A DNA stretch of 64,000 bases. It comes from Candidatus Enterousia sp. GTDB taxonomy: Bacteria; Pseudomonadota; Alphaproteobacteria; Rs-D84. The DNA is taken from positions 26,362 through 90,361 of the forward strand of contig JAZROX010000045.1 of assembly GCA_045648945.1 (NCBI GenBank). The letters are read 5' to 3'. A model generated the notes under the pieces. The model searched no databases. It saw only the letters and a program-made list of their open reading frames with translations, and had not been told where the DNA came from. Of the stretch, positions 6,673-50,413 are shown one piece after another (positions within the stretch are counted from its first letter, which is position 1; every line of letters starts with the position of its first letter). The position numbers and the translations under genes are program-made.

Positions 6673-6765
6673 AAAACAATCCCTTGGTTATTTGGTAACT
6701 ATTGTATAAAGAATACCAAACATTGCAAGTCCGTGCAATCTTTTTATTTTTTTATTTACAAAAGC

Positions 6766-7182: not shown

Positions 7183-7260
7183 TTTGCTCTCCTGTGTGTT
7201 GTCCACATTGATATTACCGCATAAATTCACAAAATCAAGATTTTTATAGACAGTCCACCC

Positions 7261-7286
7261 CGAACCAGTGACATACGGATTAACAG
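7261..7286. repeat. 26-bp direct repeat (left copy) bounding the defense island: cgaaccagtgacatacggattaacag
   Basis: Identical 26-mer recurs at 15962-15987. Putative attL. Confidence 0.7.
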
Positions 7287-7299
7287 TTATAACCAATTG

Positions 7300-8617: not shown

Positions 8618-8632
8618 TATGAAAGTGACATT

Positions 8633-9535
8633 GTGCACTTTTCTTTTATAATTAAAAACGAGCATATATTGTTAAACAAAGAATTTCCTTTACAACACCC
8701 ATTAAAAAACGATGATATAGATACCTTGATGAAAAAGTTAAGGATGATGGTTCGTACCATGGAACAATTTCATCCCCAAGCGACAACAGATAAAGGATTG
8801 ATGGGAATCCATAGTTTAACCGCTGCAATCATATCACTAGCCGCAGAAGCGTATGATGCTTTGCAAAAAAATAGAGTATTTGTAGCATCTTCAATTGCTT
8901 GTCAGATAATAGAACTTTACATACAGTTGTTGTGGTTAGATAAACATTTTTCAACACACGGTGCAGACTATATTGATTTTGGATATGTTGAGCAAATAGA
9001 TATGCTGCGAGTGCATCCAGACCGAAAAGATGAAGTTTTGGCAAAAATAAAGCAAAATAACTGTAAACGTTTTTTGTTAAATAAACCTAAGAATGACAAT
9101 TTGTTGGATAAGCGAAATTACAGACCACATTGGTATCCTGGGACATTAAAGACAATTTCTAATGAGTGTTTTAAAGATATGTGGGACCAAATCAAAAATG
9201 TGCCACAGTTAACTGATTATTATGGTGACATGGATGTAAATTATGAGAACTATCAAATATTTTGTGGATTTAAACATTTTTCGCCGTACATAGTTCGTAA
9301 ATGCTTTGCGACGATGAGCTCCTTTGCAGAGGATGCACCTGAAGATACTAAGTGGATCGCTAGTGTCATTGTCGTTCAGAGTTTGTGTGTTATTTGTGAA
9401 ATAATGGAACAGCATGGAGATCATATTTTCAATTCAAAACCAGTTGCGACAGATGGACTGATGCTATCGTCTATACAAAACTTGATAAACGGTGACAATG
9501 TATTGTATTCTGTGAATTATCAAATAATTATCTGA
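8633..9535 (+). CDS. Hypothetical protein (island cargo)
   Basis: 300-aa ORF with no recognisable motif. The true start may be an internal Met (~8738). Confidence 0.4.
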   Translation: MHFSFIIKNEHILLNKEFPLQHPLKNDDIDTLMKKLRMMVRTMEQFHPQATTDKGLMGIHSLTAAIISLAAEAYDALQKNRVFVASSIACQIIELYIQLLWLDKHFSTHGADYIDFGYVEQIDMLRVHPDRKDEVLAKIKQNNCKRFLLNKPKNDNLLDKRNYRPHWYPGTLKTISNECFKDMWDQIKNVPQLTDYYGDMDVNYENYQIFCGFKHFSPYIVRKCFATMSSFAEDAPEDTKWIASVIVVQSLCVICEIMEQHGDHIFNSKPVATDGLMLSSIQNLINGDNVLYSVNYQIII

Positions 9536-9581
9536 GAATTTTTGTATGAAAAGTATTTAATGAATACTGAATTGTATATTT

Positions 9582-11009
9582 TTAGTTATTAAAAGTTAAA
9601 AGCAGTGAATTGGTAAATATGGTCAGAGTTTTACATGCACGAGTTGCAGCAACATAGAAGTTCTTTTTGTCAAGCAAATGAGCGTCCAATATAATTACAT
9701 TATCAAACTCTAGGCCTTTTGTAAGTAGGGTGCTGCCTATACATTGTTTATGTAAATTTCGTCCTGTTCTGCGTATATGATTTTTATAATCGTACATCGC
9801 ATTACAAATAGAACAGTTAGATACTATAGCATTTTGTAAAACTTTTATTATTGTGTTTAACAATTCGGGTCTTTGATACTTTAGCTTCAATACATCTCGC
9901 ATAAGCTTTATAATGTAAAATAATGATGTTTTACTGATTTTATCGTCGAGCAAGTTATCAACATGTTGTTTTAATTGGTTTGCCTTCTCTTTTTCTTCGA
10001 TTTTTGTTTTCTTTTTCAATCCGTTATTATTGAACCACGTATCAATATCTGTTTTATTGAACAAAAATTGTTCACACGTTTCTTTAAAAAGAGAGAATTG
10101 ACTAGTAGATGTGAGTAACGTGTCTAAGCGTATAGCTAAATTATAAAAATCTGGATCGTCTATGGCTTCTAGCAACTGAAAATGCGATAATGCTAAATTG
10201 TTTCTCAACGATTGTCTTTGCCGTAACATGGAATTTGCAATTATCAAAGTGTTCGGAATTCGTGATAAACGTAAAACTTGGCGTCTATAATTAAGATCGT
10301 TATAAACTGTGCCAGTGACGTGTATAATGTTTATGGCCGGCCAATTTTGCGATAAATCAACATCATTGCCTTGTTCCAAATATTTTCTTAGTGTTTTTAA
10401 AGATTGTCCTAAAATAGGGTTGTTGCCGTTGAGCTCCCATCTCCATGGCTGTTCCAGTGAGCCCGATGCATCAGAAAAATCGTTTAGTTCGCTATCAAAA
10501 TCGACCAAAGGTTCACCAAAATTGAAAATTCCTTGCATTGGGTCCCCCAATAAATGCATAGGTATCGCGTCCTTTAATTGCATAAGCATATTATGCTGAT
10601 TTGCAGTGCAATCTTGATATTCATCAATAAATATCCCTGAGTATGTTTTTTTTATTATATTACGTATCGGCTGCTTAGAAAACAATTCGGCCACCTTAGG
10701 TATGATGTTTTTATAGTATCCATTGGTGTTTTGTTCTGGTACAGATGCAGTAGCAAAGCCCAACACATATTTTTGGGCATATCCACATATCGTTTCTATA
10801 TTATATGCAGAACTGGGGATGCCACATTTTAACAATTTTTCCCTTATTGATGCGATTCCTGCATGAGTATGTGTTAAAATAAGTTGTTTGCCTAAGTTTC
10901 TGTCGTTAGCAAATTTTACGCAATCGGCGATAAAATGGGTTTTGCCATATCCAGCAGGCGCTATAATTTTTGTTTTTATTCCCATTACAAATTGTTCTAT
11001 ATTTACCAT
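9582..11009 (-). CDS. gajB: Gabija GajB, UvrD-like helicase
   Basis: Walker A APAGYGKTHF, UvrD motif II FIDEYQDC and motif VI VAATRA. 475 aa. Immediately downstream of, and coupled to, the OLD-family ATPase gene. Confidence 0.8.
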   Translation of the reverse strand: MVNIEQFVMGIKTKIIAPAGYGKTHFIADCVKFANDRNLGKQLILTHTHAGIASIREKLLKCGIPSSAYNIETICGYAQKYVLGFATASVPEQNTNGYYKNIIPKVAELFSKQPIRNIIKKTYSGIFIDEYQDCTANQHNMLMQLKDAIPMHLLGDPMQGIFNFGEPLVDFDSELNDFSDASGSLEQPWRWELNGNNPILGQSLKTLRKYLEQGNDVDLSQNWPAINIIHVTGTVYNDLNYRRQVLRLSRIPNTLIIANSMLRQRQSLRNNLALSHFQLLEAIDDPDFYNLAIRLDTLLTSTSQFSLFKETCEQFLFNKTDIDTWFNNNGLKKKTKIEEKEKANQLKQHVDNLLDDKISKTSLFYIIKLMRDVLKLKYQRPELLNTIIKVLQNAIVSNCSICNAMYDYKNHIRRTGRNLHKQCIGSTLLTKGLEFDNVIILDAHLLDKKNFYVAATRACKTLTIFTNSLLLTFNN

Positions 11010-12641
11010 TTACTCACCGATCCATTCAGATAAAGCAGTCCATGTTCTTTTTGTATAACAATCAGGTATTGTATCCCATTTGTCAAATATAGTTTTCCCT
11101 AAAGCTTCTCCCTTGTCGATTCTTTTATACCATTCGTTTCCTTTGTCAATGGCATAATTAGCAATTTTGATTCTATCTTCTGGGCAATCCTGCAACCCTG
11201 TTACAGACGGATGTGATAATAAGAGTTCTTCTATTATTGACCATGGTAAATCCTTAAAAATTTGATGCTCTATATCATTACCATTCTCGCAATCAAAAAT
11301 TTTGACGTCTAGGACTTGCAAGTCTGCTTTCTTATCATTTATATCATTTTTATCAGAATCAATAAAAACGCATGTATCAAAACCCAATTCTTTGAGTTTT
11401 TTTGCTCGTTCTATGGTGGTGCTTCCTTCGCCTAGAATATAGAAACAGTCATTTAAGGACATGGAATTTTTATTATTTTTTTGTCGCCATTTGTCCAATG
11501 CTCTACAAATACCTATCTCTGTTTTCCCTTCGCATATGATGATTTTTTTACAAAAAAAACCTTCCGGATTTGCCCTAACGACAGCTTGCCAATTGTCTTT
11601 TTCAGGAATGTTTGTAATAGAGACAAACTTGTTGTCATCGGACTTTTTTACAAGATACAAATCACTTGAAGCAAGTTCCACAATAGCATCACGTGAATGA
11701 GTAGTTAGAAAAATTTGCCCATTGTTTTCATCTTTTAATATTGATACAATTTGTTTAATTCTATCTGGTTCTAATCCTTGTTCTATTTCATCTATTAACA
11801 CTATCCCCCCTTGTTTGGTCAATGCTAATTGGATAGCTATAGAAAAAATGCGTTTTGAACCTTTACCTCTTAAACGTAAAGGTATATTGTTATAATCGTT
11901 TAAACAAATTTTAGTGTCCTTTATAGCAATATCCCTAAAATCGATGGATGTTTTTAAGCCTTCTGCGTTTAATCCGAGTTTGGTAGAAGTTTGGCTTATT
12001 TCATTGGTTGTTTCTAATGTTTGTGGAAAATCAATATTATCAATTTCAGATTTCACTGCTCTCAACCTATCGATAATTATGTTAGAATTTTCTGGTGCTC
12101 CAGAAATCTCTTTAAATAATTGATACAGTGGAGAACCTTTATTCCACGAAAAGTGATTGTCAACATAATCTGATATAAAAAAACAATTTAATTTTGCTCT
12201 ATCTGTTGCACTTATTGCTTTAGGTTCTTGGCGATTTGTAAAGATTTCCCATTTCGGTTCTAGGGTTTTATCTACGGTCAGCCTTATTGTATAAACATCT
12301 TCTAAATTATCATCGTCAGTTAAATCATCTATTACTTCTTTTGTGCTTCTATTATACTGTCTCTTATACAATCCAAACTTTTCTTCTGTTTGTAATACGT
12401 CTGGTATTTCAGAAAGAGTAACTTCGATTTGTATTTGTTGGTTTGTATCACCATCAAAAAAATCTGTGTCGTAAAACTGGAGAGTGTAATTAGGGCATAA
12501 AGCATAATAAATTGAATTTAAAACCGTTGTTTTCCCGCAATCATTCCTACCAATAAGACAAACAAAGTTTTTATCAAAGGTTTCAGATAATGATTTTATT
12601 GTACGAAAGTTTTTTATATCTAATTTTACTATCTTGCTCAA
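11010..12641 (-). CDS. gajA: Gabija GajA, OLD-family ABC ATPase fused to TOPRIM nuclease
   Basis: Walker A GRNDCGKTT, Walker B VLIDEIEQGLEP, and TOPRIM motifs IIICEGKTE and FIDSDKND in the C-terminal third. 543 aa. Confidence 0.8.
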   Translation of the reverse strand: MSKIVKLDIKNFRTIKSLSETFDKNFVCLIGRNDCGKTTVLNSIYYALCPNYTLQFYDTDFFDGDTNQQIQIEVTLSEIPDVLQTEEKFGLYKRQYNRSTKEVIDDLTDDDNLEDVYTIRLTVDKTLEPKWEIFTNRQEPKAISATDRAKLNCFFISDYVDNHFSWNKGSPLYQLFKEISGAPENSNIIIDRLRAVKSEIDNIDFPQTLETTNEISQTSTKLGLNAEGLKTSIDFRDIAIKDTKICLNDYNNIPLRLRGKGSKRIFSIAIQLALTKQGGIVLIDEIEQGLEPDRIKQIVSILKDENNGQIFLTTHSRDAIVELASSDLYLVKKSDDNKFVSITNIPEKDNWQAVVRANPEGFFCKKIIICEGKTEIGICRALDKWRQKNNKNSMSLNDCFYILGEGSTTIERAKKLKELGFDTCVFIDSDKNDINDKKADLQVLDVKIFDCENGNDIEHQIFKDLPWSIIEELLLSHPSVTGLQDCPEDRIKIANYAIDKGNEWYKRIDKGEALGKTIFDKWDTIPDCYTKRTWTALSEWIGE

Positions 12642-12709
12642 TTTTTATTTCTCCTAAAAGTTTTATATGCATGTGATTATGGCGAATGGTTCTTGTTGTA
12701 TTATAGTTT

Positions 12710-13606
12710 TTATTTCAATAATTCTTCCAACACACCTTTTTGCACCATGGCAATGTTCAAGATGTAATCTGTGGTGTTAAATGTGTCGTGCAATGGGCGT
12801 TGGGCAGTTTGCCAACCTAGACCATCAGTAATCCAAATGAATTGGTGACCGTCTTTAGACCATTGTTGATAAATTTTTGCATATTCGCCTGCTGTGGATT
12901 TTAGTTTTGAACCGCCACCACCGTAAAAGTTGGTTTCGATCAGATATAATTTATGTGGTGTGTTTATAGCAAAATCTATTCGTTTGGAAGAGTTTGTAAC
13001 GGTTATATGCTTACCCCATTCACTGTAAATTTTGTCTGCGGTAGCTTGGGCAATGTAGTCATATCCGTTTCTTTTACAAATATCTTTGATAAATAATTCT
13101 GTCAATGTTTCCATTGATGTGCCACTACGATTTTTGCGACCATTTGAATCAAGCCCGACTTCTACACCAAGGAAATAATCTGGAACGGATTTTATTGTTC
13201 GGTCAGAAATCAAATCTAATAAGCCAGATTCTTTCATGAATTTTGCAGCGTCTTTTGCGGACATTGGTTTTGTAAAATCAAAACTAGTTGTAGCGAAAGA
13301 GTTTGCGTGATCGATCAAAGAAATTTTTTTATGGCGTTCTGCGAGTAATGCAGGAATAATCTTAATTATATTTGGATATTCGCTTAAAAGTTGCTCTGCT
13401 GCCTTTTCAATATCTGGTTTGCCAATAAGGGTGTTAAGCAAATTCAATGATACTTCCGCTTCATGGTAATTTTTACATACCTTTTGCCAGTTCACAAAAT
13501 AATCCCAAGATTTGATAGTTTCTTTCAAATTATCAATCAAATACGCAAATACTTCGTCTTCGTTTTTACAACCTAGTAATTTATCAAATATTTGGGAATA
13601 TTTCAT
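12710..13606 (-). CDS. DpnII/MboI-family type II restriction endonuclease (predicted GATC-specific)
   Basis: 298-aa ORF terminal in a Dam-MTase / second-MTase / REase cassette, the same order as dpnM-dpnA-dpnB. Family assignment rests on context and size. Confidence 0.55.
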   Translation of the reverse strand: MKYSQIFDKLLGCKNEDEVFAYLIDNLKETIKSWDYFVNWQKVCKNYHEAEVSLNLLNTLIGKPDIEKAAEQLLSEYPNIIKIIPALLAERHKKISLIDHANSFATTSFDFTKPMSAKDAAKFMKESGLLDLISDRTIKSVPDYFLGVEVGLDSNGRKNRSGTSMETLTELFIKDICKRNGYDYIAQATADKIYSEWGKHITVTNSSKRIDFAINTPHKLYLIETNFYGGGGSKLKSTAGEYAKIYQQWSKDGHQFIWITDGLGWQTAQRPLHDTFNTTDYILNIAMVQKGVLEELLK

Positions 13607-14388
13607 TTTTTATCCTTTTTTTCAGATATATCATATAACCTTTTTTCAGCCAGTTCAACAAATTGTGACTCTTGGTCTATGCCAACAAACAAACGTCCAT
13701 GTTTTATTGCAGCAACACCTGTTGTGCCACTGCCCATAAAAGGATCCAGAATCAAATCGCCAGGATTTGTAGATGCCAAAATAATACGTTCCAATAATTC
13801 TACTGGTTTTTGAGTCGGGTGTTTGCCAAATTTCTTTTCTTCTTTAGTGGGTGTTCCAATAGCCCAAACACTTCGCATTTGGCAACCTGGCTTTTTAATA
13901 AAGTCTTTTGGGAAATCGCCATTCTTCATAGCTTCATAATTAAAAGTATGTTTTGCTTTTTTGTTTTTGCGCGCCCAAAGTAGGGTTTCGTGACTTGCGG
14001 TAAAGTACCGGCAAGACATATTCGGACTGGCATTTGGCTTAAACCAAGTTATGTCGTTTAAAATATGGAACCCAAGTAATTGCATAGCAAAGCCGCACGA
14101 ATATATGCTGTGGTATGTGCCGCTGACCCATAATGTGCCATTGGGTTTCAAAACACGATGACAGGCACAGAGCCATTTTTTATGAAATTCAAAATCATCA
14201 CTAAGACCGTGTGATTTATCCCAATCGCCTTTATTCACAGATACAACACAACCATTTTGACATGTGATACCACCGTTGGAAAGCATGTACGGTGGGTCTG
14301 CAAATATCATATCAAATGTATTTTCCGGAAGTTCAAGTAACTTTTCAAGGCAGTCTGCACAATAAAGACGATACGATTTCTTAGTCAT
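13603..14388 (-). CDS. DNA N6-adenine/N4-cytosine methyltransferase (DpnA-like second methylase)
   Basis: FADPPY catalytic motif near the N-terminus and a SAM-binding DPFMGSGTT motif near the C-terminus (beta-class order). Confidence 0.75.
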   Translation of the reverse strand: MTKKSYRLYCADCLEKLLELPENTFDMIFADPPYMLSNGGITCQNGCVVSVNKGDWDKSHGLSDDFEFHKKWLCACHRVLKPNGTLWVSGTYHSIYSCGFAMQLLGFHILNDITWFKPNASPNMSCRYFTASHETLLWARKNKKAKHTFNYEAMKNGDFPKDFIKKPGCQMRSVWAIGTPTKEEKKFGKHPTQKPVELLERIILASTNPGDLILDPFMGSGTTGVAAIKHGRLFVGIDQESQFVELAEKRLYDISEKKDKK

Positions 14389-28786: not shown

Positions 28787-28812
28787 TTTTTTGACAAAAA
28801 TTGGAGTTTGAT

Positions 28813-30855
28813 ATGTCTGATAATGTAAAAGAGGTTAAAATGCAGGTCGCGCCGACATTTATTTGTAATGTGATGAGCGTTAAAAAACGTTCTGGTGAAA
28901 CCGTCGCGTTCGAGGCCAAAAAGATTTATGATGCGATTAAAAAGGCGGCCGTGGCCACCAACGAAATATCTGATGAGCATGTTGTCCAAATCACAAACGA
29001 TGTTTTGACCGATTTGGACAATAATTTTATGGGCAAAACTCCGTCGGTCGAAGAGATCCAAGATACAGTGATTCGCAAATTGATGGATGCGCGCGCATAC
29101 AAAACGGCCGAGGCATATATTATATATCGTCAAAAGCATTCTGAAATTCGCAACGCAAATATCGATGCGGTCGATGTTATCGAAAGTTATGTTGGTGGTT
29201 CGAATTGGCGTATCAAGGAAAACGCAAATATTGGTTATTCTATTGGTGGTCTTATTTTGCGGACCAGTGAACGTGTCACCGCGGAATATTGGTTGAATAT
29301 GTTCCCCGAAGAGATTGCCGATGCGCATCGCAGTGCCGCGATTCATATCCACGACCTTGGGTGGTTGACCGGTTATTGCGCGGGTTGGTCACTTCGCGAA
29401 TTGTTGTACGAAGGTTTCAACGGTGTTCCGGGCTACCTGCAGTGCGAACCGGCAAAGCACATGGCGACGGCGATTTCGCACATGGTAAACTTCCTGGGTA
29501 CATTGCAAAACGAATTTGCCGGGGCCCAGGCGTTCTCGTCCGTGGATACATACCTGGCACCATATGTCCGCATTGATAAAATGTCATATTCAGATGTGAA
29601 AAATGCGATGCAGACATTGGTCTTTAATTGCGCGGTGCCGTGCCGTTGGGGAACACAGACACCGTTTATTAACTTTACATTCGATTGGACATGTCCAAAG
29701 GATTTGCGTGAACAACGCCCGTTTGTTGGGAAAAAACAGGTCGATTTCACCTATGGCGACCTGCAAGAAGAAATGGATATGATAAACAAGGCGTTTATCG
29801 AGGTTATGACCGAAGGCGATGCCCAGGGCCGTCCATTTACATTCCCGATTCCGACATATAATATCACGGACGATTTTCCGTGGAACCATCCGAACGTCAA
29901 ACCTTTGTTCGATTTGGCGGCAAAATACGGAATTCCGAATTTCCAGAATTTCTTGAATTCTGATTTGAATCCGACGGATGTTCGTTCTATGTGTTGCAGA
30001 CTGCGTCTTGACGTGCGCGAATTGCTGAAACGCGGTGGTGGATTGTTCGGTTCTGCGGAAAAAACCGGTTCGATCGGCGTTGTTACGATGAACCTGGCGC
30101 GCCTGGGCTATCGTCACAAGGGTGATCGCGAAGGCTTGTATCGCGAATTGGAAAGACTTATGAACATGGGGCGTGAAGTTTTGGAAATTAAACGTCGCGT
30201 TATATCCAAGCATATGGAAAATGGTTTGTATCCATTTACCCGTCGTTACCTGGGCAATTGGAATCATCACTTTTCCACAATTGGCGTGAACGGTGCGAAC
30301 GAAATGGTTTTGAACTTTACGGATGGCAAAGAAAACATTGCGACCCCGTTTGGTAAAAAATTCGTTTTGGATTTAATGGACTTTATGCGTGACAAATTGG
30401 CCACGTTCCAAGAAGAAACCGGAAATCTGTATAATCTTGAGGCGACACCGGCCGAAGGTTGTTCATATCGCTTTGCAAAAACCGATGTGAAAAACTTTCC
30501 GGATATTATAACCGCCGGCACGCGTGAGGCGCCGTATTATACGAATTCAACGCAATTACCGGTGAACTTTACCGATGACCCGTTTGTTGCACTGGAGCAC
30601 CAGGAAGAATTGCAACGCAAATACACGGGCGGCACAATGTTGCACCTGTATATGGGCGAACCGGTATCCAGTGGCGAAGCCGCACAAAAGATTGTCCGAA
30701 CAATCTTTGAAAACTACAAGATTCCGTACATGACACTTACCCCGACATTTTCAATATGTCCAAAGCATGGGTATTTGCCGGGTGCGTATGACTTTTGCCC
30801 AAAGTGCGATGCAGAATTGGGAATTTGTACCGAATGTGCATCAAACAAGGCGTAA
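28813..30855 (+). CDS. nrdD: Anaerobic ribonucleoside-triphosphate reductase
   Basis: ATP-cone-like N-terminus, class III RNR core, C-terminal Zn-ribbon CPKHGY...CPKCD...CTEC and a glycyl-radical region. ATG at 28813 follows a ggag RBS. Confidence 0.85.
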   Translation: MSDNVKEVKMQVAPTFICNVMSVKKRSGETVAFEAKKIYDAIKKAAVATNEISDEHVVQITNDVLTDLDNNFMGKTPSVEEIQDTVIRKLMDARAYKTAEAYIIYRQKHSEIRNANIDAVDVIESYVGGSNWRIKENANIGYSIGGLILRTSERVTAEYWLNMFPEEIADAHRSAAIHIHDLGWLTGYCAGWSLRELLYEGFNGVPGYLQCEPAKHMATAISHMVNFLGTLQNEFAGAQAFSSVDTYLAPYVRIDKMSYSDVKNAMQTLVFNCAVPCRWGTQTPFINFTFDWTCPKDLREQRPFVGKKQVDFTYGDLQEEMDMINKAFIEVMTEGDAQGRPFTFPIPTYNITDDFPWNHPNVKPLFDLAAKYGIPNFQNFLNSDLNPTDVRSMCCRLRLDVRELLKRGGGLFGSAEKTGSIGVVTMNLARLGYRHKGDREGLYRELERLMNMGREVLEIKRRVISKHMENGLYPFTRRYLGNWNHHFSTIGVNGANEMVLNFTDGKENIATPFGKKFVLDLMDFMRDKLATFQEETGNLYNLEATPAEGCSYRFAKTDVKNFPDIITAGTREAPYYTNSTQLPVNFTDDPFVALEHQEELQRKYTGGTMLHLYMGEPVSSGEAAQKIVRTIFENYKIPYMTLTPTFSICPKHGYLPGAYDFCPKCDAELGICTECASNKA

Positions 30856-31095: not shown

Positions 31096-31797
31096 ATGAA
31101 CACGATTCAGATTGGTGGATTGGTATCATTCACAACGATTGATTATCCGGGCAAATTGGCGTGTGTGCTGTTTTTGGTTGGTTGTCCAATTCATTGTGTA
31201 TATTGTTCAAATCCCCATCTGATACCCGTGGGCGCCGGCGAATACGATCCCGAAAAGGTCTTTGATTGGTTAAAATCGCGTGTTGGGCGGTTAGAGGCAG
31301 TTGTCTTTTCGGGGGGCGAGGCATTAATGCAAGGCCCGGCTTTATTGGATTATATGCGCCGCGTGCGGGAATTGGGTTTTTCCATTGGTCTGCACACCAA
31401 TGGATTTTATCCGGAAAACCTGGCCGCGGCGTCGTCTTTGATCGATTGGGTTGGGATTGATTACAAGGCAACCAAGACAAATTATGAAAAATTGACGGGC
31501 GTAAATATTGCATACGACCGTTTAATTAAAAGTTTGGATACGTGGGCCGCAACCGGCAAACCGGCCGAGGTCCGCACGACATGCGATCCGCGCTTTGTGA
31601 CGCCGGATGATCTAAGAAAAATTGCGCATGATGTTGCGTCGCGTGGTTTTAAAAACTTTGCGGTGCAAAAATATATTCCGCACTTTGAAGACGACGCACA
31701 CGCGACAACGCCCGCAATGCGCAACGCATTTTTTAATGATAACGCGTTGCGCGATGAAATAAATTCCCTGTTTGAAACCGTAACCTGGCGGGAATAA
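31096..31797 (+). CDS. nrdG: Anaerobic RNR activating protein (radical SAM)
   Basis: CPIHCVYC radical-SAM CX3CX2C cluster. 233 aa. Confidence 0.8.
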   Translation: MNTIQIGGLVSFTTIDYPGKLACVLFLVGCPIHCVYCSNPHLIPVGAGEYDPEKVFDWLKSRVGRLEAVVFSGGEALMQGPALLDYMRRVRELGFSIGLHTNGFYPENLAAASSLIDWVGIDYKATKTNYEKLTGVNIAYDRLIKSLDTWAATGKPAEVRTTCDPRFVTPDDLRKIAHDVASRGFKNFAVQKYIPHFEDDAHATTPAMRNAFFNDNALRDEINSLFETVTWRE

Positions 31798-33201: not shown

Positions 33202-33295
33202 GGATGGTTGGCAGAGCGGTTGAATGCATCCGACTTGAAATCGGACAAGGTATGAAATAAGACCTTCGGGGGTTCAAATCCCTCACCATCCGCCA
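33202..33295 (+). tRNA. tRNA-Ser (anticodon UGA) with long variable arm
   Basis: Acceptor GGATGGT/ACCATCC, anticodon stem CCGA/TCGG with loop CTTGAAA, long extra arm, T-loop GGTTCAAATCC, discriminator G and encoded CCA. Confidence 0.85.
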
Positions 33296-33455
33296 GTAAA
33301 ATCGGGCATCCCGTGGTAATTCCACGGGATGTTCTTTTTCGCCCCGTTTCCGGCAGTTTTTATACACGACATTACCAGTATATATCATTGTTTTTACCAA
33401 CTATGCCATATTTTACCATATTTATATACCTTACCCAAAAACGCGATGCCACTTT
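33290..33455. repeat. Direct repeat copy 1: tRNA-Ser 3' end (last 6 nt), its terminator hairpin and ~130 bp downstream
   Basis: ccgccagtaaaatcgggcatcccgtggtaattccacgggatgttcttttt...attaccagtatatatcat recurs at 38922-39090 with ~90% identity over the first 100 bp, degenerating beyond. The terminator hairpin is at 33308-33339. Confidence 0.75.
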
Positions 33456-33570
33456 TGAGTGCTTTTTCTATTAAAACCAAACAAAAAAACAGTTTCTTGT
33501 TATGAAATTAGTTGACAAAAGTTTTTGATGTGTTATTTTATCGGTGATATAAATTCAAGGCGTTTATATT

Positions 33571-34692
33571 ATGTTGATTGATTATAAAAATTATGTTAGC
33601 TCTTTAATTCGTTTTTTTGCACAAAAAAAATGGGAATATTCCTTTTTAAATGGAGATGTTATTTTTATAAAAAACTATACTGATACTGTCACTAGAAAAA
33701 TTAAACCTGAATATTTATTGAACGACTCGCTGTTTTATTCAAAAGTTGTTGAAAGCTTTTCTGCTCTGAATATACCCGTCAAAATAATAAATTCAATAGA
33801 AAATAAAAATTCTGATACAGATTTTATAATTGCTGGATTACAATTAGCTAATAACTCTTTAAAGAAAGATATCGTGAATCACGAATCTTTTTACTCATTG
33901 CAACCAGTTGTGCGTTTAACAAAAACCTCCATGGGAGGACAAAACAATAATATGCTAACATCGTTTATAAACTTATGTTCGGTTGATATAAACACTTCCT
34001 TAGATGAATATATGCAACGTGTGGATCAATGGATTTCTGTTTTTTCGAACCTTTCTTTACATACAAGTGGCTTTAAATTGATAACCAAAAAAATCCAAAA
34101 TAATAGGTTTTATGATGGGGTACCTTTTTATAATGGATTAAAGTTAAAATTCGTGTATCAAAACGTTGATATAGCCGTTGCTAATTTGTTTACCGTTAAT
34201 TGTAAACAAGGTTCAATTCTGGTTTCTGATTTCGGTTCTAGCTATGAACGTGTGTTAGGATGTATCAATGGGAATGATAACTTTTTTAAACCCATATATC
34301 CTAGTTTTCAGGTTTTATATGGCAACTATGTTATAAACGATAGGTTGCGAACGGCAGTTCTGATGTGTATGTCAGGTATAACTCCTAGTGCACATGGCAA
34401 TGGACAAAAATTAAGGAATATAATAAAAGAGGCTACAACAGTACCAGAAATTAGTAGACTAAAAGAAGTCATAACTTATTATTATATGTATTATTCAAAG
34501 TTTATAAATTCTAAAATAGAGTTGCCGTATGTATCCAGTATGATAGAAAAAGAGATTGAACAACAGCAGAAAAAGATTATTTCTGGTAAATATGATAAAA
34601 AAAATGTTACTAAATCAATAGATAATGTTTGTAGCGAAATCATTTTGAAGCAAGTCTTGCAAAGACAATCTATGTTAACCAAATTTAAATAA
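33571..34692 (+). CDS. Hypothetical protein (AT-rich island gene 1)
   Basis: 373-aa ORF with island-type low-GC codon usage. No confident motif. Confidence 0.45.
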   Translation: MLIDYKNYVSSLIRFFAQKKWEYSFLNGDVIFIKNYTDTVTRKIKPEYLLNDSLFYSKVVESFSALNIPVKIINSIENKNSDTDFIIAGLQLANNSLKKDIVNHESFYSLQPVVRLTKTSMGGQNNNMLTSFINLCSVDINTSLDEYMQRVDQWISVFSNLSLHTSGFKLITKKIQNNRFYDGVPFYNGLKLKFVYQNVDIAVANLFTVNCKQGSILVSDFGSSYERVLGCINGNDNFFKPIYPSFQVLYGNYVINDRLRTAVLMCMSGITPSAHGNGQKLRNIIKEATTVPEISRLKEVITYYYMYYSKFINSKIELPYVSSMIEKEIEQQQKKIISGKYDKKNVTKSIDNVCSEIILKQVLQRQSMLTKFK

Positions 34693-34706: not shown

Positions 34707-36827
34707 ATGAATGTATTTGAGACCCCACAATTTTTTCGAGAAGAAATATTAAAACTTTCAAACTTAGTTAATCGTGAAGAAGATAAATATACTGGCAAGT
34801 CCTTAATCTGTGTTTTTTTTACATCCTATTGCGGTGTTGGTTGTCCTTTTTGCTTTTTTTCCAGCCCTTCTCCAATACATGGAGAAAATGTAGAAAATAA
34901 GTTTAATGCTGATGGAGTTGATAAATTTATAGAATTCGCTAACAGTGCGAATGTAGGATATCTGCAAATATCTGGTGGTGGTGAACCATTTTTAGAAAAA
35001 GAGGCTATTATAAAAAGTATAGAACATATCAATGCGGATAGAATAATTTTAGTAACCAGCGGCATATGGGCCTGTAATATTGAGAATGCTGAAAAATACC
35101 TATTAGATTTGAAAAATGCTTTAAGTCGTAGAACCAACAAAACAAGACTATCTATTAGATTAAGTGTCAGCAAAGATCATAATATTAAATTGAAAAATCG
35201 TCCTCTTTATAACTTATTACAATTATTTGAAAAAAAATATAAATATGACGAGGATTTCACATTACAGCTAAAGACCTTTGATAACGATGATACTTTGACA
35301 ACTTATCTGGACAAATTTAATCCTGGGTGCAAAATAGAATACATTGGTAAAAATTGTTCTGATGATGAAAATCATATCAAAGTTATGCCACAAAAATTCA
35401 GAGTAATTTTTGATTCTGGTTATTCAGTAATAATCGGTCAATCTAGAATTTTTAATTCCAATCTTAGACCAAATATGAATATTCCAAATTCTATTGCAAA
35501 TACAATTAATGTATACGATCAGGATACCTCACAAAGCCAGTCTGATTTTCCATCTCTAGTTTTTAATTCAAACGGAAAACCAGGAATAGATTGGATTATT
35601 GAGTACAATGGAAATGTTTGTGCATGGCAAAACCGTGTTCAAGACAATTTATTAAACATATATGAAGACAAGTATGATTATGTTGTGAATAAAACATTGT
35701 CAGATCCTTTGACTTTGTCTTTTATAGAAAAGGGCGCAAAATATAGAGAAAAAATCATACAAGAAGTTGCCCCGCACACCGTAAAATTGGTAAAGGCTGT
35801 TAGTATACGTGATTATGCTGGAACATTATTGTTTGAAGATGAAAAGACCAGACTATATTACACATTACGCGTTTTGCAAGATTACATGAAAGAAGGGAGA
35901 ATAAATCAAGAAATATTTAGGCAACTGCCTTCAGAGATTCGATCGATACTGCAATTAACACAACAAGATTTAGTCGCATTGTATAAAAAATCTAATTATT
36001 CAATATTATCACAAGAACTAAGCAAGAATCATAACGCACAAACTTTTGGGGATTTTTTAGAGTTGGTCAAACTAGGACACTATAAACTCAATGCGTATGA
36101 TATACAAAAAGCTATCAAATATTACAATTCCATAAGTGGTTGCCAGATAAGTAGTATAGACGAGATACCTCATTTGACGGGAATTGATGTCGAGAGACGC
36201 TTTACAAAAAGAGTAATGACAATGAAAAAATTAGGACAAAATACAACAGGTTTGAAACATATATACATATACCGTCACGGAGAAACTTTTTGGAATACAG
36301 AAGGTATTGTTAAAGGTCAAATGGATGATCTAAACGTAAGTTTTACTGATAAAGGGTTAGAACAAATAAATACAATTGCGCAAGATATGAAGTTTAATCA
36401 AATTGAAGAAATATATGCATCTGATTTGGCAAGAACTAAAAATACCGCTCTGTTAGCTAATACAGATTTACAGCTTCCATTATCTTTTCATTCTGAATTA
36501 CGCGCATTGAATATGGGAAAATATCAAGGAAAACCATTCAAAGATTTTATTAGTGATCCTGCTGTACAAACAGCTTTCATAAACCACGATATTTGCATTC
36601 CTGATGGTGAGAGCATTAATCAGTTAAATACTAGACTTTTTACATTTTTAAACAAAATTGTATCGCAAACCACAGCTAAAAATATCGCAATAATTATGCA
36701 TAGTGCAGCTATAAGCAACTTAAAAGCCTATATTACAAAAGAAAAATATGAAGATATAGAACGATGTGAAATTTTATATGCAAATAAAAAATTTACAGTA
36801 ATAAAAACTAGACAAAAGACGTATTAA
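34707..36827 (+). CDS. Radical SAM domain protein fused to a C-terminal histidine-phosphatase (PGM-branch) domain
   Basis: N-terminal CGVGCPFC (CX3CX2C) and GGGEPFL SAM-binding motif. C-terminal IYRHGETFWN (RHG catalytic motif) and IIMHSAA second His. 706 aa. Confidence 0.7.
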   Translation: MNVFETPQFFREEILKLSNLVNREEDKYTGKSLICVFFTSYCGVGCPFCFFSSPSPIHGENVENKFNADGVDKFIEFANSANVGYLQISGGGEPFLEKEAIIKSIEHINADRIILVTSGIWACNIENAEKYLLDLKNALSRRTNKTRLSIRLSVSKDHNIKLKNRPLYNLLQLFEKKYKYDEDFTLQLKTFDNDDTLTTYLDKFNPGCKIEYIGKNCSDDENHIKVMPQKFRVIFDSGYSVIIGQSRIFNSNLRPNMNIPNSIANTINVYDQDTSQSQSDFPSLVFNSNGKPGIDWIIEYNGNVCAWQNRVQDNLLNIYEDKYDYVVNKTLSDPLTLSFIEKGAKYREKIIQEVAPHTVKLVKAVSIRDYAGTLLFEDEKTRLYYTLRVLQDYMKEGRINQEIFRQLPSEIRSILQLTQQDLVALYKKSNYSILSQELSKNHNAQTFGDFLELVKLGHYKLNAYDIQKAIKYYNSISGCQISSIDEIPHLTGIDVERRFTKRVMTMKKLGQNTTGLKHIYIYRHGETFWNTEGIVKGQMDDLNVSFTDKGLEQINTIAQDMKFNQIEEIYASDLARTKNTALLANTDLQLPLSFHSELRALNMGKYQGKPFKDFISDPAVQTAFINHDICIPDGESINQLNTRLFTFLNKIVSQTTAKNIAIIMHSAAISNLKAYITKEKYEDIERCEILYANKKFTVIKTRQKTY

Positions 36828-36869: not shown

Positions 36870-37586
36870 GTGTGTCCGATGAATGTATTATTGAACGGTG
36901 GTGGTTGCGCCGAAAAAACAAAAGAAATTTATACTTTTTTAAATAAAATCATAAACAATTCAAAACCTATATTGTGTATTCCCCTTGCCCGGGATAGAGA
37001 TGATAGTGGATATGAAAATTCTAAGGTTTGGTTGCAGAATGAATTAAATGACATTGATTATTCTGGTTTGGTTATGGCAGATTCATCCGATTATATATCA
37101 AAGATGAATTTAAATGATTTTGGATTGATTTACATTAGTGGGGGGAATACGTACAAATTATTGAAAGAATTAAAGGATACAGAAGCATTTAATAAAATAA
37201 GAGCCTATTTTCTTTCTGGTGGTATTATTTATGGATCTAGTGCCGGGGCGGCAATATTTGGCGCTTCTTTACGTTCCATAGCATATGCCGATAAAAACGA
37301 TGTTAAATTGCAAAATATTCAAGGATATGATTTGTTTTCCGGAATATCAATAGCCGCACACTATACTAATAAAAATGAAGAAAAAACTCAAATTGCAACA
37401 GAATACCTGATACAATTATCAAAAACTGAACCAGTTGTAGCTTTACCAGAAGAAGATACTATATATATACACGATGGTCTTGTTACCGTGTTTGGTTCTC
37501 GCGATTATTACATATTCAGGAATGGTGTTCGAAAAGCATTTACTACTGGCCAAACCATGCCAAAAGAAGTATTTTTGAATCTGTAA
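36870..37586 (+). CDS. Peptidase S51 family (dipeptidase E / cyanophycinase-like)
   Basis: ISGGNTYKL and GSSAGAAIFG nucleophile-Ser motifs typical of S51. 238 aa. Confidence 0.6.
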   Translation: MCPMNVLLNGGGCAEKTKEIYTFLNKIINNSKPILCIPLARDRDDSGYENSKVWLQNELNDIDYSGLVMADSSDYISKMNLNDFGLIYISGGNTYKLLKELKDTEAFNKIRAYFLSGGIIYGSSAGAAIFGASLRSIAYADKNDVKLQNIQGYDLFSGISIAAHYTNKNEEKTQIATEYLIQLSKTEPVVALPEEDTIYIHDGLVTVFGSRDYYIFRNGVRKAFTTGQTMPKEVFLNL

Positions 37587-37640: not shown

Positions 37641-38525
37641 CTATTTTGTTGCCATTTTTTGGTTGCAGACTAATTGTCCGCATGCGCCTGCAATATCTTG
37701 TCCTTTGCTAATTCTAATAATTGTTTGTACACCTACGCTTTCCAATCTTTGTTTAAATATATTTGCTTTATCCTCTTTTGCACGAGACATTGAGATTGTT
37801 TGCGTTTCGTTATACAATAATATTTGAACTTTAAAATATTTAGGGTCAATCAATTTTATTAGGTCTGCTAAATGCTTTTCAGAATCGTTCACATTGTTTA
37901 TTAACATATAACTTAATGTCACTCTTTTATTGGTCTGAATTACATATTCTTTGCAAGCCCCCAACAGTGTGCTTATATCATATTTTTTATTAACAGGCAT
38001 CAGTTGTGAACGTTGGTTGTCGTAAGGAGAATGCAACGAAACAAAAAATTTGATGTTTTTTAATTCATTTTGTAGCGTGGCAAGCTCTGCTATTTTGTCT
38101 ACTATACCTACCGATGATATAGGAATTGTTTCCAAATTTGGGTCGTATTGGCTTATTCGTTTGCAAAAATGTTTCAAATTGATAAAATTATCTAGCGGTT
38201 CCCCCATTCCCATTACCACGGCACTATATTTAATATTTTCTGATTCTATATTTCTGTATATTAAATCAGACCTGATAAGTCTGATTTCATCCAGCATTTC
38301 ATTATGAGATAAGTTAGCATAAAATCCATTATGACCAGTTGCACAAAACAAGCAGTTCATTTTACAACCCGCTTGTGAAGATATACAAATATGGTATCTA
38401 TCGTACGGGATCCCATTTCTTTGGTTTATTCTGTAGTAAACAGCCTCGCACAAATTACCGAAATTTGTGCGAAATATGTACTTTATGCTTCCGTCTTGAG
38501 ATCTCAAAGAATTCAGAATTTTCAT
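37641..38525 (-). CDS. RlmN/Cfr-family radical SAM RNA methyltransferase homolog lacking the N-terminal accessory domain
   Basis: HICISSQAGCKMNCLFCATG, MGMGEPLDNF and C-terminal DIAGACGQL retain both mechanistic Cys of RlmN/Cfr. Only 294 aa (about 70 residues shorter at the N-terminus). Confidence 0.65.
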   Translation of the reverse strand: MKILNSLRSQDGSIKYIFRTNFGNLCEAVYYRINQRNGIPYDRYHICISSQAGCKMNCLFCATGHNGFYANLSHNEMLDEIRLIRSDLIYRNIESENIKYSAVVMGMGEPLDNFINLKHFCKRISQYDPNLETIPISSVGIVDKIAELATLQNELKNIKFFVSLHSPYDNQRSQLMPVNKKYDISTLLGACKEYVIQTNKRVTLSYMLINNVNDSEKHLADLIKLIDPKYFKVQILLYNETQTISMSRAKEDKANIFKQRLESVGVQTIIRISKGQDIAGACGQLVCNQKMATK

Positions 38526-38921
38526 ATAACAGACCCTTGCTAATTACATATTAGAATAAAAAAAACAAGTTTCAACCGGTTTTATATAAAAAACACAACA
38601 TTCAGCTTGTTATTAGAACACAGATATCCTGGTAATATACTTTGTATCAAATGTGGTGATTCTTGCATATAGACAAATTTTCCCAAATTTCGAACATCTT
38701 TTGAACCATAGGTAATATCTATTTGATATTACTTGATTGTTTGTAAAGACATTACTATCAAAAAGGTGCGTTTTATTTATCACTTTTTTTAACAATGTAA
38801 TCGGTGCTTTTCGCATAATTTTGGCTTTTGTGCACTACAAATATTGTTGGCTGTACTTGTTATAAAATCTATTTTTTCGTTCACACGGGCAAAACTTCCT
38901 GTTTTTCGAATACCTTTTGAG

Positions 38922-39090
38922 CCGCCAGTAAAATCGGGCATCCCGTGGTAATCCCACGGGATGTTCTTTTTTGCCCGATTTTCCGCAGTTTTTGGCTATG
39001 ATATTACCAGTGTATATCATCATCCGCGCCCAAACCGCCAAAATTCACCACAACCATATACCTTGCCCAATTTCCCGATGCCAGTTTTCC
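38922..39090. repeat. Direct repeat copy 2 of the tRNA-Ser 3'-end/downstream segment
   Basis: See 33290-33455. Includes a second copy of the terminator hairpin catcccgtggtaatcccacgggatg and its T-tract. Confidence 0.75.
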
Positions 39091-39145
39091 CTTGAATGGC
39101 CGCGTTTTTCTGTTAATATCGTAACCGATAAACAAAGGATTTTAC

Positions 39146-40823: not shown

Positions 40824-41603
40824 TTATTCTCTGCCTTTGCCTAGATTTATGTGCTGTTGTTCCGACTTCATGAGTTTATATGTCTTTGCACCAGGCTTTG
40901 ATATGATTTCGGTCATCGTTTGATTGTTTTTATCATCTGTTTGAACCATAATTGCGGCCCCTTCATCAACAGCGTATCCCCATTTGTTTTCTTTGGTTAG
41001 CATCTTCCTTATAGAATTTCTGGACACAGAACCTTCAACATCTTTGTTTTCAGATTTAGTATTCCAATGTGGAACGAAATATCCACGAACCAACCCCAAT
41101 GCTGGTTTTGTTTTGAGTGTTTCAAGATTGCCGCTGTCAAAATCATCATCTTCATCGTTGCCATAATACTCAAACCAAGCACATCCACCGGCACTATTAC
41201 CCGCCATAATTATCCCTTGGTCGTATGCTTGACGTAATAGCTTATCAACCCCCGTATCACTCAACACTTTCATGAGATACGTGACATTGCCACCACCAAC
41301 ATAGATAATATCTGCCCCTAAAATAATCTTTTTAAGATCATCTGCATTTGGTCTTTTGGAAGCGTCAATCAAATTCAAATTTTCTACAACACATCCAAAT
41401 TGTTCAGTAAAATACTTTTCGATTGCCAAGAAACGAGATAAATCATCACCATGTGCAGCACCAATAAATACCAGTTTTGGGTGCTGTTTGCCGGTAAGTT
41501 CTACCATTTTTTTATCAATCTCGAATGTTTCCATCGGCTTTTGTATTCCATTCTTCATCTGACCAAACGAACCACCACCGATTGCAATAACGGTTTTTGT
41601 CAT
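40824..41603 (-). CDS. Peptidase S51 family (cyanophycinase/peptidase E-like), second copy
   Basis: GGGNVTYLM and AGNSAGGCAW motifs. 259 aa. Confidence 0.55.
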   Translation of the reverse strand: MTKTVIAIGGGSFGQMKNGIQKPMETFEIDKKMVELTGKQHPKLVFIGAAHGDDLSRFLAIEKYFTEQFGCVVENLNLIDASKRPNADDLKKIILGADIIYVGGGNVTYLMKVLSDTGVDKLLRQAYDQGIIMAGNSAGGCAWFEYYGNDEDDDFDSGNLETLKTKPALGLVRGYFVPHWNTKSENKDVEGSVSRNSIRKMLTKENKWGYAVDEGAAIMVQTDDKNNQTMTEIISKPGAKTYKLMKSEQQHINLGKGRE

Positions 41604-49333: not shown

Positions 49334-50413
49334 TTGGACATGAAACAACTTATAAAACCGCATAAATTAAATCCAGGTGATTTGGTTGCAACTGTGTCTT
49401 TGTCTTCTGCGATGGCTGGCAAAATTCCGGGACGTTATAATTATGCAAAAAAACAATTTGAAGATACATTTGGTGTTAAAATTATTGAAATGCCAAACTC
49501 GTTAAAAACAGACGAATTGTATAACAATCCTCAATTAAGATTAGATGATTTAATGATGGCGATAAAAGCCCCTTCAATCAAAGCGATTCTTACAAACATT
49601 GGGGGAGATGATACTGTGCGTTTATTGCGTCATATGACTGATGAACATTTTGAGATTATTCGTAATAATCCAAAAATATTTTTGGGTATGTCTGATACAA
49701 CAGGTAATCATTTGATGTTTTTTCATGCGGGTGTTTCTTCTTTTTACAGCGCATCTCTTATGTTTGGTTATGGTGAAAATTGTGGTATTCCAAAAATTAT
49801 GGTTGAAAATACCAAAAAGACTTTATTTGATAATTCTCCAATTGGTGAATTGCCACAATCTGATGAATTTATTGTAGAAAAAATTTATTGGGATGATAAA
49901 AACGATGTGTTAAGAAAACGAACACACACCGATGGGTGGCATTTTATCCAAGGAAATAAACCTGTTCGTGGACGGTTGCTGGGCGGATGTATGGAATTAC
50001 TGGCAATGACAAACGGAACAAAAATATGGCCAAAAATGGACGATTGGGATGGTGCTATTTTGTTTGTTGAAAATAGTGAAATAAGAGCAATCCCAGAACA
50101 ATTTGGCGATTTTTTGCACAATATTGCAGCGATGGGAATACTGGAAAATTTGTCTGGTATATTATTTGGACGCCCAGGTGGTGAATTTTCAGCAGGTAAA
50201 GAATCCGAACAAGATAAGTGGCTGTCTCTTTATCCACAGTTTGAGAAACGCCTTGTTAAGGTATGTGCAGAATACGGTCGCAGCGATATGCCAATTGTTA
50301 CGAATATGGATTTTGGTCATACTGTACCACAAATAATATTACCGTATGGCGCATTAACAGAGATAGACCCAATAAATAAAAAAGTTTCAATATTGGAAAG
50401 TGCAGTATTGTAA
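49334..50413 (+). CDS. S66-family LD-carboxypeptidase (LdcA/MccF-like)
   Basis: 359 aa with a GDLVATVSLSS N-terminus and a Ser-His-Glu triad arrangement (GMSDTTG...H...E) typical of S66. Confidence 0.6.
   Translation: MDMKQLIKPHKLNPGDLVATVSLSSAMAGKIPGRYNYAKKQFEDTFGVKIIEMPNSLKTDELYNNPQLRLDDLMMAIKAPSIKAILTNIGGDDTVRLLRHMTDEHFEIIRNNPKIFLGMSDTTGNHLMFFHAGVSSFYSASLMFGYGENCGIPKIMVENTKKTLFDNSPIGELPQSDEFIVEKIYWDDKNDVLRKRTHTDGWHFIQGNKPVRGRLLGGCMELLAMTNGTKIWPKMDDWDGAILFVENSEIRAIPEQFGDFLHNIAAMGILENLSGILFGRPGGEFSAGKESEQDKWLSLYPQFEKRLVKVCAEYGRSDMPIVTNMDFGHTVPQIILPYGALTEIDPINKKVSILESAVL

Follow-up and report, generated by a model that had tools for sequence, protein, structure and literature searches.

Results

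A stretch of 64,000 nucleotides of Candidatus Enterousia sp. DNA (GenBank assembly GCA_045648945.1, contig JAZROX010000045.1, positions 26,362 to 90,361 of the forward strand), referred to below as the window, contains at 34707..36827, on the plus strand, a gene coding for a protein of 706 amino acids (aa) in which a radical S-adenosylmethionine (SAM) domain, an all-helical domain and a histidine phosphatase domain follow one another. The open reading frame (ORF) is a genuine three-part enzyme. The fusion is conserved and of single origin, it stands in an island together with genes for a protein similar to alanyl-tRNA synthetase (AlaRS) and for a Peptidase S51, and in other lineages its radical SAM core is found next to nucleotide-handling partners. 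A nucleotide-type small molecule is rather likely to be the substrate, and the fusion gene can be regarded as the putative centre of a small, horizontally mobile biosynthetic operon.

Domain architecture of the fusion protein

The features of the fusion gene are the following (residue numbers refer to the protein).

34707..36827, plus strand: radical SAM / helical domain / histidine phosphatase fusion, 706 aa (ORF, Pfam, NCBIfam, AlphaFold2 model, conservation)
34794..35666, plus strand: radical SAM partial barrel and cluster-less, twitch-like beta region, residues ~30-320 (closest solved fold, EpeE/YydG)
34830..34853, plus strand: CX3CX2C cluster motif (C42, C46, C49), with the sole invariant cysteines in 72 homologues
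35673..36215, plus strand: all-helical, family-specific domain, residues 323-503 (confident model, invariant residues, no match to known families)
36255..36815, plus strand: histidine phosphatase (branch 1) domain (Pfam, NCBIfam, fold; R523, H524, R576 and H665 conserved)

The coding region is a single open frame of 706 codons, the translation of which contains no internal stop. The motifs CGVGCPFC and SGGGEPFL occupy residues 42-49 and 89-96, RHGE occupies 523-526, and the second catalytic histidine is at 665. In Pfam, Fer4_12 matched residues 30-133 with 28.4 bits (cut-off, 22), and Radical_SAM scored 19.5 bits, under its cut-off of 29.5. By NCBIfam, the C-terminus is nearest to phosphatases of the CobC, GpmB and PspA types and the N-terminus is weakly nearest to the YydG epimerase, all of them far under the equivalog cut-offs. 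The AlphaFold2 model of the whole protein had a mean predicted local distance difference test (pLDDT) of 92.2 and a predicted template modelling score (pTM) of 0.84. Neither the core nor the helical domain is covered by a family of Pfam, NCBIfam or PADLOC.

An earlier interpretation of the same DNA, the sequence-only reading, had assigned the N-terminus to radical SAM enzymes and the C-terminus to phosphatases of the phosphoglycerate mutase type. Both assignments are upheld, the first by the CX3CX2C and GGGEP motifs, the Fer4_12 score and a fold nearest to that of EpeE, and the second by the Pfam match (E 1.2e-32) and by a model with the branch-1 histidine phosphatase fold. Its statement that the architecture has no characterised representative also holds, as none was found in Pfam, NCBIfam, PADLOC, the PDB or the searchable literature. 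The literature search yielded nothing relevant on a radical SAM enzyme paired with a histidine phosphatase, Peptidase_S51, an AlaRS-like protein, adenosine deaminase, a kinase or defence.

The radical SAM core and the helical domain

The core shows the GGE SAM-binding motif and the partial TIM-barrel fold expected of a radical SAM enzyme. C42, C46 and C49 are invariant in 72/72 homologues, and no other cysteine is. Residue 305 is Cys in 58 of these sequences, Ser in 9, Thr in 4 and Ala in 1. Two methods gave EpeE as the best fold match to the core, with 278 residues aligned; the structure-comparison values of the matches after EpeE were 13.7 (SuiB), 13.0 (BlsE), 12.0 (MoaA), 11.6 (viperin) and 10.2 (AbmM). 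Foldseek returned EpeE with E 9.5e-8, followed by MoaA, anSME, BlsE and BtrN. A search of PDB sequences with the core profile gave no significant match, so the kinship between the core and EpeE is seen at the fold level only.

In EpeE, an extended twitch domain holds an auxiliary [4Fe-4S] cluster, and Cys223 serves as hydrogen donor (PMC13012085). The fusion core and EpeE/YydG (PDB 8ai1/8ai2) are alike in fold, with a sequence identity of 16-18%. They differ in that the fusion protein has no auxiliary-cluster cysteines, no accompanying precursor peptide gene, an extra 180-aa helical domain plus the phosphatase domain, and nucleotide enzymes as neighbours. Because the auxiliary-cluster cysteines are absent, only the three cluster cysteines being invariant, the fusion lies outside the EpeE family: it resembles EpeE in fold and is not a member.

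Concerning the middle of the protein, which the sequence-only reading had taken for a linker of ~250 aa devoid of known motifs, that description has to be abandoned. Up to residue ~320 it belongs to the radical SAM fold, and residues 323-503 form a confidently modelled helical domain in which many charged residues invariant in the family are found (invariants R347, E353, R368, D369, Y384, R388 and H458). Nothing known matched this domain. The middle region is thus no linker; it forms a conserved portion of the catalytic unit.

The histidine phosphatase domain

The Pfam family His_Phos_1 matched residues 519-703 with E 1.2e-32 and 113.7 bits (cut-off, 21.7). The best PDB fold matches of the fusion model were 9mmh, CobC (6e4b/6nru) and PhoE (1h2e), with a target template modelling (TM) score of ~0.77 (Foldseek); the top matches of the domain act on ribosyl or ribityl 5'-phosphates attached to a heterocycle (CobC, riboflavin HFP 9mmh). 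Among phosphatase-domain sequences, 49 conserve each of R523, H524 and R576, and 50 conserve H665. The CobC equivalog TIGR03162 was not reached (83.1 bits versus 162.9), and the remaining NCBIfam phosphatase equivalogs were likewise under cut-off. So, the domain has in common with CobC, PhoE and GpmB-type phosphatases the fold and the Arg-His...Arg...His core, and it differs from them in its equivalog scores under cut-off, in the replacement of a catalytic Glu by Gly or Ala (discussed below) and in its fusion to a radical SAM enzyme.

Spread and origin of the fusion

Homologues were searched among 5.8 billion proteins and counted as clusters at 90% identity. About 60 clusters of 705-740 aa have both domains and come from Patescibacteria, Clostridia, Christensenellaceae and others; NCBI names the fused proteins merely 'histidine phosphatase family protein'. 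In the same search, ~40 further clusters of 510-540 aa end before the phosphatase. Among GTDB species representatives the core was found at 48 loci (numbered below with the prefix L), and in 17 of them the phosphatase follows it directly and in frame. The closest relative of the fusion among GTDB genomes (67% identity) was obtained from goat colon and carries the label Alphaproteobacteria.

All the fused proteins constitute one clade when the core sequences are arranged in a neighbour-joining tree. The sister group of this clade contains P0085; at its locus, L014, a separate His_Phos gene of 189 aa overlaps the end of the radical SAM gene. The single fused clade, together with this split form in the sister group, points to one fusion event between two adjacent genes. 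A frameshift, an assembly error or a two-gene artefact is ruled out by the ~60 conserved clusters, the 17 GTDB species representatives and the single clade, so the ORF can be taken as one gene, as it had been from its letters. The S51 peptidase has been joined by a further fusion in P0047/L011, a protein of 951 aa (radical SAM, phosphatase and S51). This same locus has in-frame TGA codons where homologues have Gly, which indicates genetic code 25 (Gracilibacteria/Absconditabacteria type).

Phage and plasmid records matched only the phosphatase domain, and the viral contigs of IMG/VR gave no match whatsoever. A radical SAM and His_Phos pair on a Manganitrophus plasmid (L066, CP114557.1) was discarded as a homologue, its radical SAM protein being unrelated. 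That locus is an independent trio (4677-7714), with the radical SAM gene flanked by an aminoglycoside-phosphotransferase-type kinase and a histidine phosphatase within a glycosyltransferase cluster.

Partners of the radical SAM core in other lineages

Across the 48 loci the core swaps partners, and almost all of these are nucleotide-handling proteins. The contexts observed were the following.

L004-6, L026, L028, L029 (Alphaproteobacteria, Nitrospinae): TMK/dNK-like kinase and adenylate kinase by the core
L042-44 (Legionellaceae and Chlamydiae, including Rhabdochlamydia): TMK-like kinase and an unassigned 350-aa protein
L042, additional neighbours: GFO/IDH/MocA oxidoreductase, two NUDIX proteins and a separate His_Phos
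L007, L008, L035-39, L047 (Chlamydiae, Verrucomicrobia): two paralogous unassigned proteins and a possible nucleotidyltransferase; EEP phosphatase where the contig is long enough
L049 (Bacteroides): thymidylate kinase and adenosine deaminase, the latter as a separate gene after the core (region 8001-10485)
L050 (Clostridia) and L054 (unclassified bacterial metagenome-assembled genome, MAG): adenosine deaminase fused to the core, then NUDIX and a TMK or P-loop protein
L055, L057-59 (including archaea): RmlD-like reductase; in L059 also a dNMP kinase
L045 (Clostridia): radical SAM-PfkB fusion upstream and NUDIX downstream of the core
L052 (Clostridium): NUDIX by the core
L048 (Paracaedibacteraceae): RpiB-NUDIX fusion by the core
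L030 (Janthinobacterium MAG): NDK-like protein, major facilitator superfamily (MFS) transporter, AlaRS-like and RlmN-like genes

The fusions of the core with adenosine deaminase have ~810 aa (L050, 7995-10424; L054, 7986-10430). In addition, a distant member of the AlaRS-like family adjoins a dNK/TMK kinase and another radical SAM gene (L065). The nucleotide-handling partners around the core are the main evidence from which a nucleotide substrate is deduced, and an adenine nucleotide is the likeliest candidate in view of the adenosine deaminase, adenylate kinase and RlmN-like partners.

Other details of these loci may be recorded here. In L045 the enzyme fused to the PfkB-type sugar/nucleoside kinase (5797-7440, two genes upstream of the core) is a different radical SAM enzyme, and a small response-regulator-like ORF lies between it and the core. 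In the cassette of Chlamydiae and Verrucomicrobia, the two paralogous 350-aa proteins have the motifs WLETQ, HSSF..GKPVLGAG and ESGHY; the possible nucleotidyltransferase has 195 aa, and an unassigned protein of 230-290 aa is also present. The unassigned proteins of this cassette, and the Unk350 family that lies beside the core in Chlamydiae, gave no Pfam or PDB match.

The low-GC island and the partner genes of the window

The fusion gene is one of four genes of an island in the window, the other features of which are listed below.

33202..33295, plus strand: tRNA-Ser, anticodon TGA (ARAGORN); its 3' end begins the left direct repeat
33273..33388, plus strand: left direct repeat, with a terminator-like hairpin at 33304-33334 (31 nt) (repeat search, 0 chance matches expected)
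33571..34692, plus strand: truncated AlaRS paralogue, 373 aa (68-member profile versus 2ztg); it ends 14 nt before the fusion gene
36879..37586, plus strand: Peptidase S51 (PepE/cyanophycinase family), 235 aa (Pfam 4.1e-27; alignments with Lmo0363 and PepE)
37641..38525, minus strand: RlmN/Cfr-like radical SAM methyltransferase, N-truncated, 294 aa (TIGR00048), convergent and inside the island
38905..39020, plus strand: right direct repeat, 83% identical to the left copy, at the end of the low-GC island (repeat alignment, GC)

The four-gene island has the lowest guanine-plus-cytosine (GC) fraction of the window, 0.305-0.336, versus 0.44-0.48 just upstream. The two copies of the repeat are 5.6 kb apart, and their alignment extends over ~190 nt, starting at the ...CCGCCA of tRNA-Ser; with the tRNA gene, the left region takes up 33202-33470, and the right one 38905-39100. 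The low GC and the direct repeats flanking from the 3' end of tRNA-Ser indicate that the four genes travel as a unit, and together they resemble a small island that was inserted next to a tRNA gene. No integrase gene is present within the four-gene island of the window; in L012 (Christensenellaceae) an island with the same gene set adjoins a phage-type integrase. Just upstream of the window island there are genes for the anaerobic ribonucleotide reductase NrdD (ATP-cone; 28801-30855) and its activase NrdG (31096-31797), which indicate an anaerobic host. Another low-GC stretch of the window (8000-14000, 0.33-0.34) may be a further acquired region.

The protein encoded upstream of the fusion had no Pfam assignment beyond a weak tRNA-synt_2c match, and its close homologues numbered only four. 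When 1.84 billion representatives were searched with a profile, 311 relatives emerged, and a profile of 68 sequences from among them matched the archaeal AlaRS 2ztg with E 5.9e-24 over residues 13-257. This match to an archaeal-type enzyme identifies the gene as coding for a truncated AlaRS paralogue. The match covers the entire aminoacylation domain and extends more weakly into the tRNA-recognition domain, where it ends; the editing and C-Ala domains are absent from the window protein. The motif-2 arginine R115, the amino-group aspartate D220 and E226-R227 of the GLER motif are retained.

The AlaRS-like partner occurs in two very divergent forms, A5 (window and L064) and A4, more degenerate and with the GLER motif lost, unlike the window protein. 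A4 has weak Pfam and PDB matches to the AlaRS N-terminus. The link between both forms was not found by BLAST, by a small hidden Markov model or by hhalign with 4 sequences, and appeared with the 68-sequence profile as a weak mutual match (hhalign probability 67%, E 5e-5). The loci L001 and L016, whose fusion proteins are 65-67% identical to that of the window, carry the A4 type. Since such close relatives use A4 instead of A5, the partner has been exchanged with its function kept.

Concerning the peptidase, the start was placed at ATG 36879, with AAGGTG 6 nt upstream, the ORF as listed beginning at GTG 36870. It scored 95.6 bits with the Pfam model (cut-off, 23.9). The triad motifs GSSAGA and AAHY align with the Ser and His of Lmo0363/PepE, and LPEE was read at the position expected for Glu. 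In the split-gene locus L014 the peptidase is an S66 (LdcA/MccF family) in place of S51. Outside the island, a weaker S51-like ORF (40824-41603, minus strand) and an S66-like ORF (49334-50413, plus strand) are probably housekeeping peptidases.

The RlmN-like protein matches positions 73-346 of TIGR00048 with 234.8 bits (cut-off, 290), the first ~70 model positions being absent; the radical SAM and the C-terminal Cys motifs are visible in the sequence. Truncated RlmN-like genes recur at L001, L012, L016, L017, L025 and L030, and the one in L012 is co-directional and directly follows the fusion.

Considering the 23 distinct fusion loci, the AlaRS-like gene is present in 18/23 and S51 in 20/23, counted within the fetched stretch, most of the exceptions being cut by the contig end. 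No conserved intergenic small ORF occurs in 11 type I loci, where the cross-locus matches are shadow ORFs inside conserved genes. In L034 (10157-11998), and at the same position in L060, a B12-binding radical SAM enzyme of 613 aa lies between the fusion and the AlaRS-like genes; these loci are from gut Bacilli ('Mycoplasma sp. CAG:611'). Genes for LysRS (L025, 6562-7977), a ValRS-like protein (L064, 10037-12670) and an AsnRS-like class IIb protein (upstream in L011) were also seen near the operon and may be coincidental housekeeping or resistance copies.

Discussion

Proposed pathway

From the genomic contexts and models described, we infer a substrate, a radical chemistry, an order of steps, a product and a biological role. 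The radical SAM domain would use one [4Fe-4S] cluster and SAM to form the 5'-deoxyadenosyl radical, which would take a sugar hydrogen from a nucleotide, probably an adenine nucleotide, leaving it epimerised, dehydrated or otherwise rearranged. Hydrogen re-donation of the EpeE kind would give an epimer, and the reductase partners seen elsewhere would fit a keto intermediate. The helical domain may close the active site, its invariant Arg, Asp and His residues holding the phosphorylated substrate, and the fused phosphatase would remove a phosphate by way of a phospho-His524 intermediate. The truncated AlaRS paralogue would then add a small amino acid to the resulting nucleoside, and the S51 (or S66) peptidase would take it off again, either for self-protection or for maturation. 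The RlmN/Cfr-like enzyme might contribute C-methylation of the adenine ring, or might confer self-resistance by methylating rRNA. By the logic known from ascamycin, microcin C or puromycin, an aminoacyl-nucleoside antimetabolite is predicted as the product. The confidence given to the parts is not the same: a nucleotide-type substrate is probable, and the complete aminoacyl-nucleoside scheme, from the radical step to deacylation, is a serious possibility that falls short of even chances.

Each domain of the fusion comes from a known superfamily, and the logic of the pathway has precedents. Radical SAM enzymes are paired with phosphohydrolases in the oxetanocin (OxsB/OxsA) and polyoxin (PolH/PolJ) pathways, the S66 peptidase MccF, responsible for microcin C immunity, detoxifies aminoacyl-nucleotide antibiotics, and Cfr-type methylation of A2503 shields ribosomes from drugs that act on the peptidyl-transferase centre. 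The pairing of a radical enzyme with a phosphohydrolase in OxsB/OxsA and PolH/PolJ, and the replacement of S51 by S66 in L014 with regard to MccF, are likenesses of pathway logic only, as no sequence kinship of the radical SAM and phosphatase parts was found. A published parallel is the ascamycin pathway, in which AcmF, a truncated AlaRS-like protein with only the aminoacylation and tRNA-recognition domains, transfers Ala to a nucleoside sulfamate; removal of the alanyl group has been proposed as the task of the hydrolase AcmE (PMC12945691). The AlaRS-like gene of the window resembles AcmF, compared by description only, in its truncation, in its hydrolase partner and in its putative setting in a nucleoside pathway. 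It differs in that the hydrolase of the island is of the S51 or S66 family instead of an alpha/beta hydrolase, and in the lack of sulfamate genes.

Several points weigh against this scheme, every step of which is a prediction from homology, modelled structure and gene neighbourhood. The nearest solved fold is that of a peptide epimerase, not of a nucleotide enzyme. The operon of the window has neither a transporter nor a regulator that would mark an antibiotic cluster. The fusion loci L018 and L020 show neither the AlaRS-like nor the S51 gene in the available sequence, and RlmN-like genes occur in just 6/23 fusion loci and could be coincidental housekeeping genes of small genomes. In addition, AcmF has lost the ATP- and Ala-binding residues and uses Ala-tRNA, while the AlaRS-like protein of the window keeps the motif-2 and motif-3 arginines and the amino-group Asp, so the transfer chemistry may differ.

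A further difficulty concerns the phosphatase. In this superfamily a Glu protonates the leaving group and activates water for the hydrolysis of the phospho-histidine. This general acid/base (position of PhoE E83) is absent: at the position of A600 (codon, window 36504-36506) there is Gly in 41 sequences, Ala in 7, Trp in 1 and never Glu (n=49), and the separate phosphatase of the split-gene form L014 has Ala there too, the His/Arg core being intact despite the loss. Since the Glu is missing, simple phosphomonoester hydrolysis is not assured. The phosphatase may work slowly, may favour activated phosphates (anhydrides, acyl phosphates), or may be a phosphotransferase or mutase rather than a hydrolase; likewise, substrates with good leaving groups may be preferred, the phospho-enzyme may be longer-lived, or an acid may be borrowed from elsewhere. 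The sequence-only suggestion of a phosphorylated, nucleotide-like substrate gains independent support from the nucleotide enzymes flanking or fused to the core among the 48 loci, with the reservation just given on simple hydrolysis.

Alternative explanations

The alternative that survives best, even if it seems unlikely, is a viperin-like antiviral or conflict system, in which the core would make a toxic or chain-terminating nucleotide analogue for phage defence or host manipulation, with no secreted metabolite. Kinases, NUDIX proteins and phosphatases would tune the phosphorylation of the analogue, and the set of AlaRS-like protein, S51 and phosphatase would be one accessory variant. Viperins are paired with nucleotide kinases in prokaryotes, and prokaryotic viperins are like the core in that a radical SAM enzyme stands with nucleotide kinases in variable operons, the likely logic being radical modification of a nucleotide sugar. 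The contexts with a STAND nucleoside triphosphatase (NTPase) and with kinases favour this explanation, the chemistry of which overlaps with that of the proposed pathway. Against it, the PADLOC match is confined to the cluster-binding segment (34-110), no viperin (pVip) model matches across the whole catalytic domain, and no PADLOC model matches any neighbour. Viperin is also a far poorer fold match than EpeE, the AlaRS-like enzyme and the peptidase have no role in known viperin systems, and no homologue was found in phage, plasmid or IMG/VR collections.

A module for the modification or repair of tRNA or rRNA is an improbable explanation. The core would modify a nucleotide within RNA, phosphatases and kinases would heal RNA ends, and the AlaRS-like and truncated RlmN-like proteins would recognise tRNA or rRNA. 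The AlaRS-like protein does retain part of its tRNA-recognition domain, 6 fusion loci and L030 have an RlmN-like gene as neighbour, and P-loop kinases, EEP, NUDIX and the NTP_transf_2-like protein can act on RNA ends. However, the adenosine deaminase (PF00962), NDK, PfkB, RmlD-like and RpiB partners act on small molecules, the RlmN-like proteins are without the N-terminal domain of RlmN (~first 70 model positions), and no RNA-binding domain was detected in the fusion.

Still less credit is given to a nucleotide-sugar or cell-envelope pathway, with the core acting on a nucleoside diphosphate (NDP)-sugar, like DesII, BlsE or AprD4, and the phosphatase removing a sugar phosphate: there are no glycosyltransferases in the window operon or in most related loci, and the adenosine deaminase, adenylate kinase and AlaRS-like partners would be left unexplained.

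The least probable, and very doubtful, is an epimerase or maturase (EpeE/YydG) of a ribosomally synthesised and post-translationally modified peptide (RiPP), with abstraction of a C-alpha hydrogen, extension of the peptide by the AlaRS-like protein, trimming by S51 and removal of an activating phosphate by the phosphatase, since, even with EpeE as the top fold match by two methods, YydG as the best NCBIfam radical SAM match and C305 (Cys in 58/72) as a possible hydrogen donor, the ligands of an EpeE-type auxiliary [4Fe-4S] cluster are absent, with three invariant cysteines only, the YydG model TIGR04078 reaches 36.9 bits versus a cut-off of 300, there is no conserved small ORF in or beside the operon, and in the different lineages the core is accompanied by nucleotide enzymes instead of proteases or ABC exporters.

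Biological meaning

Returning to the nucleotide-modifying radical enzyme as the preferred interpretation, a broader proposal can be made tentatively. The core and the helical domain may constitute a new, widespread, nucleotide-modifying radical family independent of viperin, spread horizontally among reduced-genome symbionts and parasites (Candidate Phyla Radiation (CPR), DPANN, Chlamydiae, Legionellaceae, gut Bacilli) with interchangeable kinase, NUDIX, phosphatase and deaminase modules; the fused form would make a new aminoacyl-nucleoside antimetabolite by means of the AlaRS paralogue, with S51/S66 immunity. This proposal as a whole is possible rather than probable, and there is a realistic chance that the fusion represents a new family of nucleotide-modifying radical enzymes.

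If true, this would be the second large family of nucleotide-remodelling radical enzymes, after viperin, and the operon would provide the second natural case of a truncated AlaRS paralogue recruited to small-molecule aminoacylation. A natural histidine phosphatase that lacks the Glu is also a useful test case for the mechanism of its superfamily. Modified nucleosides underlie many antiviral and antibacterial drugs, and a new enzymatic route or scaffold would, if confirmed, be of direct value. Finally, members of the family occur mainly in organisms with a life on or within other cells (CPR, DPANN, Chlamydiae, Legionellaceae), so the family could bear on their competition with other cells or on the manipulation of their hosts.

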